Sequence record: OM135583.1
Origin: Escherichia phage EP01
Strand: one strand, 5' to 3'
Length of the DNA stretch: 64,000 nucleotides
Shown here: positions 2,705 to 13,582 of the stretch, in pieces
Layout: every line of letters starts with the position of its first letter
Position numbering within the stretch: the first letter of the stretch is position 1
The notes under the pieces: generated by a model
What the model was told of the DNA's origin: nothing
What the model saw: only the letters and a program-made list of their open reading frames with translations
The model's database searches: none
Translations under genes and position numbers: made by a program

Positions 2705-4329
<1,625 letters not shown>

Positions 4330-10804: not shown

Positions 10805-11083
10805 TCAAAATGTAATTTCTAACCAATCACCATCACGCTGGTCACTATTGACTTTAAAGCTAAATCCTTCTTTTCTCAGCCAATCACCAATTTCTTCAGT
10901 AATCAATTTATCACGAGCAGTACAATAATAACTAAAATATGTTTTACCTTGTTCAGCTGCTTTATTAGCAAGTTCCGAAAAATCTTTAATAAAACACTCT
11001 AGTTTAAACTGTTTACTTTTAAGTGCTTTTTCGCGTAATTGATTAGCAAAAGATTCATTTTCATAAAGATCATACTGTTCCAT
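10805..11083 (-). CDS. hypothetical protein, 92 aa (position of T4 24.2)
   Basis: Same-strand ORF in compact array downstream of hoc. Confidence 0.6.
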   Translation of the reverse strand: MEQYDLYENESFANQLREKALKSKQFKLECFIKDFSELANKAAEQGKTYFSYYCTARDKLITEEIGDWLRKEGFSFKVNSDQRDGDWLEITF

Positions 11084-11285
11084 TTTTCACCTTTTTATTA
11101 ATATGTCTTTTTCTATAGACAACTTTTTCTCGAGTCTCAAATTTATTCTTAGCAGTCATAGCTCGAGCCCATAATACAGCCACTTCTTTTGCCTGTAAGT
11201 TCAATTCACGAGCAATTTCAATGAATGACTTTCCAGACTCATGGAGTGTAAACACCACAACCTCAGTTCTCATAATCAATCTCAT
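11070..11285 (-). CDS. hypothetical small protein with helix-turn-helix-like segment, 71 aa (position of T4 24.3)
   Basis: Segment SFIEIARELNLQAKEVAVLW resembles an HTH; overlaps downstream ORF by 14 nt. Confidence 0.55.
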   Translation of the reverse strand: MRLIMRTEVVVFTLHESGKSFIEIARELNLQAKEVAVLWARAMTAKNKFETREKVVYRKRHINKKVKNGTV

Positions 11286-11353: not shown

Positions 11354-11369
11354 AGGGGCCGAAGCCCCT
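11354..11369 (-). terminator. hairpin after hoc
   Basis: GGGGC, CGAA loop, GCCCC. Confidence 0.5.
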
Positions 11370-11373
11370 AAGA

Positions 11374-12225
11374 TTATGGATAGGTATAGATGATACCAGT
11401 TTCTAAAGCAGTTTTATGAATGATGTATCCATTGCGCGATTCTTGAACATCAACTTCTGGATAGTCTTTCATCATCTTCTGAAGAGTGTAACGATGCAAG
11501 TAATATTTACTATCTGGGTCGTCAGTTTTCCAATCTTTACCTTCTTCGGTCATTTTTTGGATTTCATCCATAACCCACCAACCGCACCAGATATAAGCTG
11601 AAGTACGATGTGGAAGAGGATGAACATAAGGTAATTCACCTTCTGGTTCTTGAGCAACTTTATCATTCACAGTCAGTGATACTTCATTCGAAGTAACTTC
11701 CTTTGCATCATAATCTGTCGCGGTTACTTGAGCCACACACTTAATTGTTTTAACTCCGCTTGTGGAAGGAGTGTAATTAAATGTAGCGGAAGTTGCTTCA
11801 CTAACAGGAGAATCATCTACATACCATTGATATGTAGCAGATGCGCCTGATGGTTGAGAAGCTAAGGCAGCAGTAAATTGAACTGGGGTTCCAATTACTC
11901 CAGCAGCAGGACTAGCAGGAGTTACAGCTAAGGTAGTTGTCTGTGTCTTATTTTGAACTGTGATAGTTGTAGAAGCTTCTGCTGTTTCAGCATCAGAATC
12001 AGGAATAGTATTTGTTGCAACTACTTTAATAGTCTTTTGACCGGCAGGTCCTTTTAATACATAATCAAAAGTTGCTTCAGCTCCATCTTGTGGAACATTA
12101 TCTACAGTCCAAGCATAGGTAATAGTTCCACCTCCAGTTTCACCACTGGGTGTAGCAGTAAACTGCTGAGTCTGATCTATAACTCCAGTAGGTGTTTTAG
12201 GAGTTATATCAACTGTAAAAGCCAT
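11374..12225 (-). CDS. hoc: highly immunogenic outer capsid protein Hoc, short form, 283 aa
   Basis: N-terminal Ig-like repeats and C-terminal capsid-binding region match remembered T4 Hoc; only two Ig-like repeats visible. Confidence 0.88.
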   Translation of the reverse strand: MAFTVDITPKTPTGVIDQTQQFTATPSGETGGGTITYAWTVDNVPQDGAEATFDYVLKGPAGQKTIKVVATNTIPDSDAETAEASTTITVQNKTQTTTLAVTPASPAAGVIGTPVQFTAALASQPSGASATYQWYVDDSPVSEATSATFNYTPSTSGVKTIKCVAQVTATDYDAKEVTSNEVSLTVNDKVAQEPEGELPYVHPLPHRTSAYIWCGWWVMDEIQKMTEEGKDWKTDDPDSKYYLHRYTLQKMMKDYPEVDVQESRNGYIIHKTALETGIIYTYP

Positions 12226-12234
12226 AAGTTATCC

Positions 12235-12915
12235 TTATTTTAATGTTACGAAAGAAGAGTTGCGTGTTTCACGAATTAAAACTGATCCGTCACGGTTAAT
12301 GTAGTAAATTAAGCTAAATAAAGTTTGGTGTGCTGACGCGTGTTCAAAACTAGTTGGGTGAGATTTCCAATCCGGAGTTTCAGCAATCCATTGATAAATC
12401 CACCAAGGAACAGTACAGAATCCTGGATTTTTTCCAATCAACTGAAGATTCGGGCTAAAGTTTTCCGGAAGAGTAAATACAGACGGCTTTTCAGATTCAA
12501 TAATCTCAGCTACAGCCTGCTCAAATTTTTCTTCAACAAAAGGAGTATCTTCAATCAAAACATCGATATTTTCAGGAATTTTATCCGTTTCTACCACTTC
12601 AATTTTAATGTCAGATTTAACCGGAGAATCAATTAGAAGTGCTGCTTCTGGATTGACCTCTTCATCGTCATATTTTAATCCCTCTGCAGCATCAGCAGCA
12701 TTAATTAAGTCTTTAATAGATAACCCATCAGTCTCTGGCATAGGTTCACTAGCGAGCTTCTGGAGGGCTTCTTCAATATCAACAACGATATTATCAAAAG
12801 ATTTATTCTTTTTGACCTTTATACCAAACTGTTCAGCATATTCAGTTAATTTAGCTTTAGCTTCTTTATTATCATCAAGAGCCTTCAGCTCTGCAATATA
12901 ATCTTTATCTATCAT
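12235..12915 (-). CDS. inh: inhibitor of prohead protease, 226 aa
   Basis: Size and synteny (hoc-inh-segE) as T4; GAGGAAA SD. Confidence 0.82.
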   Translation of the reverse strand: MIDKDYIAELKALDDNKEAKAKLTEYAEQFGIKVKKNKSFDNIVVDIEEALQKLASEPMPETDGLSIKDLINAADAAEGLKYDDEEVNPEAALLIDSPVKSDIKIEVVETDKIPENIDVLIEDTPFVEEKFEQAVAEIIESEKPSVFTLPENFSPNLQLIGKNPGFCTVPWWIYQWIAETPDWKSHPTSFEHASAHQTLFSLIYYINRDGSVLIRETRNSSFVTLK

Positions 12916-12928
12916 AATATTTCCTCAG

Positions 12929-12936
12929 TATAAATA
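12929..12936 (+). promoter_or_regulatory. late promoter TATAAATA upstream of segE
   Basis: Exact 8-mer 29 nt upstream of segE ATG. Confidence 0.55.
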
Positions 12937-12964
12937 TAGATATATTTATTACTCGGAAAATAGT

Positions 12965-13582
12965 ATGTATCACTTTGTATATGAAACGACAAATCTAATA
13001 AATGGTAAAAAGTATATAGGAAAACACTCTACTGATGACTTGAATGATGGCTACCTTGGTTCCGGTAAGGCAATTCAGCAGGCTATAAAGAAATATGGTG
13101 AAAAGAATTTCTCTAGAACAATACTAAAAGAGTTTAAAACTTCCGAAGAAGCGTACATGTATGAAGAAGAAATTATAACTCCTGAACTAATAAAAAGCAA
13201 AAATTATTATAATATGAAACCTGGTGGAATTGGTGGAATTGTTATGACTGCAGAGGTTATAGCAAAGATGAAAGAATCTTCCGCTAAGAGATTTGAAAAC
13301 TCACCGGGCACGGTATTAGGTACAACTTGTTACACCAATGGAACTAAAAATATTTTTATTAAACCCGGAGAACTTGTTCCAGAAGGATTTGTAAAAGGGA
13401 TGGTTCATCTTAATAGAAAGTCCAGAAAAGGATGTAAAGTCAAACCGACTACCACAGGAACTTTTTGGGTCAATAATGGAGCAATAAATAAATTAATACA
13501 ACCAGACGGTATTATTCCCGATGGATTTATTAAAGGTCGTCTCATGAAAAGAGACTCTAAAGGCAAATTTAGTAAGGCATAA
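12965..13582 (+). CDS. segE: GIY-YIG homing endonuclease, 205 aa
   Basis: N-terminal GIY-YIG module (YHFVYETTNLINGKKYIGKH); size and position between inh and uvsW as T4 SegE. Confidence 0.9.
   Translation: MYHFVYETTNLINGKKYIGKHSTDDLNDGYLGSGKAIQQAIKKYGEKNFSRTILKEFKTSEEAYMYEEEIITPELIKSKNYYNMKPGGIGGIVMTAEVIAKMKESSAKRFENSPGTVLGTTCYTNGTKNIFIKPGELVPEGFVKGMVHLNRKSRKGCKVKPTTTGTFWVNNGAINKLIQPDGIIPDGFIKGRLMKRDSKGKFSKA

Follow-up and report, generated by a model that had tools for sequence, protein, structure and literature searches.

Known Hoc fibres

Hoc is the capsid fibre by which T4 adheres to mucus, and it is also a main scaffold for phage display and for vaccines based on T4. The T4 protein has three Ig-like domains, called here D1, D2 and D3, followed by a C-terminal capsid-binding domain (C). 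T4 is described in PMC10385173 as carrying 155 Hoc fibres of 180 Å with four domains. Fokine et al. (2023) surveyed 650 Hoc homologues in that paper and found proteins with one, two, three and ten Ig-like domains.

The nearest described system is the Hoc of phage PNJ-9, which a 2024 paper in J Virol describes as "lacking Domain 3" (PMC11853027). It adheres to intestinal mucus through fucose on MUC2; the key residues are S183, L184 and T185 of domain 2. The same paper cites E29 and G33 as the MUC2 contacts of the PNJ-6 Hoc, and it quotes Chin et al. for a mutation of D246 in T4 D3 which changed mucus persistence. It contains no survey for the D3-less form in other phages.

We have analysed a stretch of 64,000 nucleotides of Escherichia phage EP01 (sequence record OM135583.1), which we will call the window. 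Its hoc gene is of the PNJ-9 type. It follows from PMC11853027 and PMC10385173 that neither this variant, already characterised in PNJ-9, nor the variation of Hoc domain number in general is new; a protein of 283 aa with 100% identity had also been deposited for EP01 (P0032). EP01 adds one more carrier, in a Tequatrovirus background, and some indication that the allele is passed between genera. The genome paper of EP01 (PMC8877722) makes no mention of Hoc.

The hoc gene of EP01

The hoc coding sequence occupies positions 11374–12225 of the window on the minus strand and has 283 codons followed by a TAA stop (11374–11376). A Hoc homologue of 283 aa had been placed there in an earlier note made from the DNA letters, and the open reading frame fills exactly these coordinates. 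Its product matches T4 Hoc with E = 9.5e-173 (phmmer, PDB sequences). A comparison of the ORF map with annotated T4 places the gene where T4 has it: it is found 3′ of inh and 5′ of the homologues of 24.3, 24.2 and rnlB, as T4 hoc lies between inh and 24.3/rnlB. The upstream neighbour inh (inhibitor of prohead protease; 12235–12915, minus strand) has the position and length of T4 inh. Its stop codon overlaps the Shine-Dalgarno sequence of hoc in the hexamer TAAGGA (12232–12237, minus strand), where AAGGA stands 6 nt before the ATG. At the other end of the gene, 5 nt past the stop, the terminator scan found a terminator-like hairpin (AGGGGC-UUCG-GCCCCU) with a U-rich tract after it (11354–11369, minus strand; RNA fold −12.2 kcal/mol, z = −2.6).

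The gene is under purifying selection, since its dN/dS with respect to relatives is below 1: the values are 0.18–0.40 in D1 and D2 and 0.04–0.16 in the C-terminal part. The 25 kb around hoc are 97.8% identical to Tequatrovirus vB_EcoM_JE01, whose Hoc has 376 aa. Judged by its sequence, EP01 is a Tequatrovirus.

Domain organization

The earlier note had given a length of 376 aa for T4 Hoc, and this is what we found in PDB 5vf3_Z, in the annotated CDS of 1131 nt and in its translation. The two proteins thus differ by 93 aa, and in the alignment the difference lies wholly inside the region of the Ig repeats. Multiple alignment gives a single gap of 93 aa, with EP01 residues 1–187 corresponding to T4 1–187 and residues 188–283 to T4 281–376. 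In the same way phmmer gives two blocks against T4 Hoc: query residues 1–191 match T4 1–191 and the C-terminus of the query matches up to T4 residue 376. The identity of the first 187 residues, which comprise domains 1 and 2, is about 85%.

Domain 1 (residues 1–93; 11947–12225, minus strand) is the orthologue of T4 D1, with 79 of 93 residues identical. Domain 2 (residues 94–187; 11665–11946, minus strand) is the orthologue of T4 D2 (82/94 identical). When the domains are scored one by one, EP01 D2 has only 30 of 66 residues identical to T4 D3. The linker (about 188–200) and the capsid-binding domain (about 200–283) are encoded at 11377–11664 on the minus strand and are 97.9% identical to T4 281–376. 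It follows from these identities, in which the second domain matches T4 D2 and not D3, that the absent piece is T4 Ig-like domain 3, exactly 93 aa (279 nt), in frame. A search of the whole window with tblastn found no sequence similar to domain 3 elsewhere, so that its relocation within the window is ruled out.

The two repeats which the earlier note had recognised by their motifs are indeed there, TITYAWTVDNV...KTIKVVATN at residues 34–72 and ATYQWYVDDS...KTIKCVAQV at residues 130–166. They are true paralogous repeats, because residues 1–93 and 94–189 are 40% identical (BLASTP E = 4e-14). An AlphaFold2 model, for which the alignment input was 41 Hoc relatives of two-domain size, has a mean pLDDT of 94.3. 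It contains two beta-sandwiches at residues 1–93 and 94–187, each with pLDDT > 90 (about 95–98 in D1), then a short linker, which is less confidently predicted, and a C-terminal domain of alpha/beta fold and T4 type. The latter superposes on T4 Hoc (8t1x_X) in Foldseek with TM 0.92 and rmsd 1.9 Å, which agrees with its sequence homology to T4 281–376. The N-terminal part is matched by proteins with tandem Ig domains (CD22, RAGE and NCAM) and by the Hoc of RB49 (3shs), so both the model and the fold search show a string of Ig-like domains. Pfam, which the earlier note had proposed for domain prediction, gave PKD, PKD_4 and Ig_2 on D2, all of them below threshold (PKD over residues 101–161 had 22.8 bits for a cut-off of 23.5), and nothing meaningful on D1; the structure model and the fold search took its place.

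The order D1-D2-C without D3, apparent in the domain scores and in the single gap of 93 aa, is the order of the PNJ-9 Hoc. This protein also has 283 aa and the same join between D2 and the linker (SLTVN|DKVAQ), and its amino-acid identity with EP01 Hoc is 91.9% overall. The key triplet S183-L184-T185 is present in EP01, residues 181–187 being EVSLTVN in both phages. E29 and G33 are also present, in D1 of EP01, whereas the site of D246 is absent together with D3. The two phages differ in that PNJ-9 is a Mosigvirus and EP01 a Tequatrovirus, and in EP01 D1 and the 150 nt at the end of hoc are closer to T4.

The deletion junction

Alignment of the DNA with T4, GEP001, JE01 and pSs-1 places the junction at codons 186–189, GTG AAT GAT AAA (V N / D K; 11659–11670, minus strand). 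Between codons 187 and 188 the EP01 gene lacks the 279 nt which code for T4 residues 188–280. In GEP001, JE01 and pSs-1, which have three or four Ig domains, D2 ends in TCA CTG ACT GTT AAT AAG AAG ACA (SLTVNKKT) and D3 ends in CAA GTT CAA GTG ACT GAT AAA GTT GCT (QVQVTDKVA). The EP01 sequence, TCA CTG ACT GTG AAT GAT AAA GTT GCT CAA (SLTVN|DKVAQ), joins the two in register. Since the break coincides with the domain boundary, the capsid anchor and the two Ig domains remain whole. At the breakpoint the two ends share only about 2 nt in register. We also considered a crossover at the hexamer TGACTG, which is found at the ends of both D2 and D3; it is one codon out of register and predicts a product of 281 aa with the join SLT|DK, which is not observed.

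The junction was then used as a probe of 161 nt, which matched 597 phage records. Contiguous matches were found in only five of them: PNJ-9 (99.4%), KIT06, vB_EcoM-RPN187, AV112 and AV113, all of which annotate a hoc CDS of 852 nt. The remaining matches with full coverage are split by about 279 nt (three Ig domains) or by about 567 nt (four Ig domains). The form without D3 is rare among the hoc genes of T4-type phages. The exact junction pattern TCAYTDACKGTGAMTGATAAAGT had no match in IMG/VR or among the metagenome contigs of JGI. The sequence GTG AAT GAT AAA GTT GCT CAA is identical in EP01, PNJ-9, RPN187 and AV112; KIT06 has GTG ACT GAT AAA, one base off (ACT for AAT). KIT06 is a Tequatrovirus, while PNJ-9, RPN187, AV112 and AV113 are classified as Mosigvirus.

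In a gene with paralogous repeats, where precisely one unit is missing, it may be thought that the Ig modules collapsed during assembly and one repeat was lost. This is extremely improbable: D2 and D3 have diverged too far to collapse at the level of reads (30/66 aa identical in the alignable part), five phages from Viet Nam, China, Thailand and Denmark, whose genomes were sequenced independently, have the same junction, and the PNJ-9 Hoc has been expressed and was investigated as a protein of three domains (PMC11853027).

The EP01 gene is a mosaic. Its nucleotides 1–420 have their closest counterparts in the Tequatroviruses GEP001 and KIT06 (19 and 23 differences). Nucleotides 421–700, which contain the junction, have 3 differences in 280 nt with PNJ-9. 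Nucleotides 701–852 are again closest to T4, GEP001 and JE01, with 4 differences, as compared with 11 to PNJ-9. This pattern, which is made up of few differences in a stretch of some hundred bases, suggests that the allele without D3 has spread by recombination.

We consider it very probable that EP01 has a functional Tequatrovirus hoc gene, with the order D1, D2, linker and capsid-binding domain, in which the 279 nt of D3 are missing in frame. They would have been lost in a single event, and the block with the junction may later have been moved by recombination. The ancestor would have been a Hoc with three Ig domains, in which D3 ended in ...VQVTDKVA as it does in GEP001, JE01 and pSs-1. A single deletion would then give the D1-D2-C allele, and homologous recombination would have moved the junction block between Mosigvirus and Tequatrovirus. 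Domain loss recurs in this family, as two metagenomic loci which lost a domain at other breakpoints (described below) indicate, so a separate deletion in EP01, neither inherited nor acquired from an allele of the PNJ-9/KIT06 type, has also to be weighed. It is highly improbable, as GTG AAT GAT and the otherwise unusual Q in DKVAQEPEG are common to EP01, PNJ-9, RPN187 and AV112, and only three positions of the 280-nt block differ from PNJ-9.

Hoc domains in other phages

The Hoc family was searched with phmmer; the query was the last 95 residues of the protein, the target a set of 1.84 billion representative proteins, and 136 representatives were found. We have classified them by the length which precedes the C-terminal domain, in units of about 93 aa. 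Two units are found in 43 representatives, three units in 20, one unit in 18 and four units in 8. Smaller numbers of representatives reach about 15 units, and 13 of the 136 have almost nothing before the C-terminal domain. Only in the T4-type lineage are two domains an unusual number for a Hoc, because two units are the commonest class of the family. In that lineage almost all Hocs have 376 or 472 aa, among the best 120 of about 930 clusters at 90% identity.

Two other genera of T-even phages of E. coli have a Hoc which resembles that of EP01 in size. In the Dhakavirus QL01 and the Gaprivervirus vB_EcoM_RZ (loci L013 and L014, gene at 301–1149 in both) it has 282 aa, with two Ig-like domains and the C-terminal domain, at the same locus. 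Its second domain, however, has 54–55 of 86 residues identical to T4 D3, versus 30–32 of 82–86 to D2. These proteins are thus D1-D3-C, without an orthologue of T4 D2, whereas EP01 is D1-D2-C; the overall identity is about 56%.

These comparisons bear on the direction of the change. The earlier note had proposed the in-frame loss of one domain of about 93 aa: the absence of 93 aa, which correspond to T4 domain 3, is found in the alignment, while loss as its direction is what we infer as more parsimonious. The presence of a D3 orthologue in the Dhakavirus and Gaprivervirus Hoc indicates that D3 is older than the T4-type lineage, and for this reason a loss of D3 is favoured over a later gain in T4. 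The opposite view takes the two-Ig form as ancestral in the T4-type lineage, with domain 3 inserted later in T4. The predominance of two N-terminal domains across the family (43/136), which speaks against loss, and the existence of 282-aa Hocs in other T-even genera would fit it. We find it very unlikely: those Hocs are D1-D3-C and not D1-D2-C, which makes D3 the older domain and D2 apparently the younger one; the junction of D2 with C occurs in just 5 of the 597 T4-type phage records; and its carriers are scattered over two genera, with flanks nearly identical to those of relatives with three Ig domains.

Further changes of domain number

The T4-type Hocs of 472 aa, found in pSs-1, BF15 and others, have the same D1, D2 and C modules as EP01, with 86–92% identity. 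They have four Ig domains in the order D1-D2-D2'-D3-C: D2 has been duplicated and D3 is kept, a change of copy number opposite to that of EP01.

Using the conserved C-terminal pattern we found 17 further loci in metagenomes (4 + 13, from IMG/VR and JGI). A usable ORF was present in 16 of them, and L019 was left out. Eight have a Hoc of 376 aa and three a Hoc of 472 aa; lengths of 378, 570, 565, 283, 282 and 241 aa are found once each, although the shortest one (L028) may be truncated. Locus L018 (UMIC01022929.1), with 283 aa, has a chimeric second domain, which is D2 as far as YQWHVDGSPV and D3 from EGSTNVYTV onwards. Locus L026 (OCHD01000040.1), with 282 aa, switches from D2 to D3 at VTATDYD|SKTITAEG. 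Both are independent deletions between D2 and D3, in register, at sites of local homology. If the boundary deletion of EP01 is counted, these few sequences point to at least three separate origins of a two-Ig Hoc in T4-type phages. The Hoc of 570 aa is D1-D2-D2-D2-D3-C, and that of 565 aa has a divergent D1 and four D3-like units. Expanded Hocs (472, 570 and 565 aa) are represented by L023 (OARM01000641.1), L024 (OBRH01000009.1) and L006 (pSs-1, 2775–4193).

A general interpretation is that T4-type Hoc behaves like an accordion: recombination in register between paralogous Ig modules would change its number of Ig domains again and again. It is based on deletions at three different places, namely the domain boundary in EP01, the SPV motif in L018 and TATDYD in L026, and on the expansion of D2 to two or three copies in the forms of 472 and 570 aa. 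We would give it an even chance. Alleles with different domain numbers also appear to have been exchanged between Tequatrovirus and Mosigvirus. If the accordion interpretation is true, the length of the fibre and its glycan specificity would be a rapidly tunable trait. Such dynamics are not described in PMC11853027 or PMC10385173, and a keyword search of the literature found no papers on Hoc domain duplication. The multiple independent deletions may be the only part of our results which goes beyond these papers.

A predicted shorter fibre

Work on T4 and the 98% identity of the binding domain lead us to expect that one EP01 Hoc would be attached at the centre of each gp23 hexamer through its C-terminal domain, as a dispensable decoration. 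As T4 residues 188–280 are absent, the fibre should be one Ig domain shorter (roughly 45 Å), about 135 Å as compared with 180 Å in T4. Adhesion to mucin glycans would be kept through D2 and possibly D1, if EP01 behaves as PNJ-9, given that the triplet of domain 2 is retained. A natural Hoc without D3 implies that this domain is dispensable for assembly, and the work on PNJ-9 that mucin binding does not require it either. This is relevant to the choice of therapeutic phages and to the design of shorter display scaffolds.

Neighbouring features

Between inh and uvsW the window has a gene for a GIY-YIG homing endonuclease of 205 aa (12965–13582, plus strand), with 201 of 205 residues identical to T4 SegE. 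A SegE-like gene is present at this place in T4 and JE01 and absent there in KIT06, GEP001, PNJ-9, RPN187, AV112 and pSs-1. This polymorphism of segE adjoins the mosaic hoc gene.

The intergenic region between inh and segE (12929–12945) contains a perfect T4 late-promoter motif, TATAAATA, on the plus strand (12929–12936). A few bases away, on the minus strand and upstream of inh and hoc, there is a version with one mismatch, AATAAATA. The two look like candidate back-to-back late promoters. Perfect late-promoter motifs occur 20 times in the window, versus 8.7 expected.

On the other side of hoc, the 24.3-like ORF (DUF2774; 11070–11285, minus strand) has 71 aa when it is read from the first ATG, while its relatives annotate a CDS of 204 nt (67 aa). 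The difference in length is probably due only to the choice of start codon.
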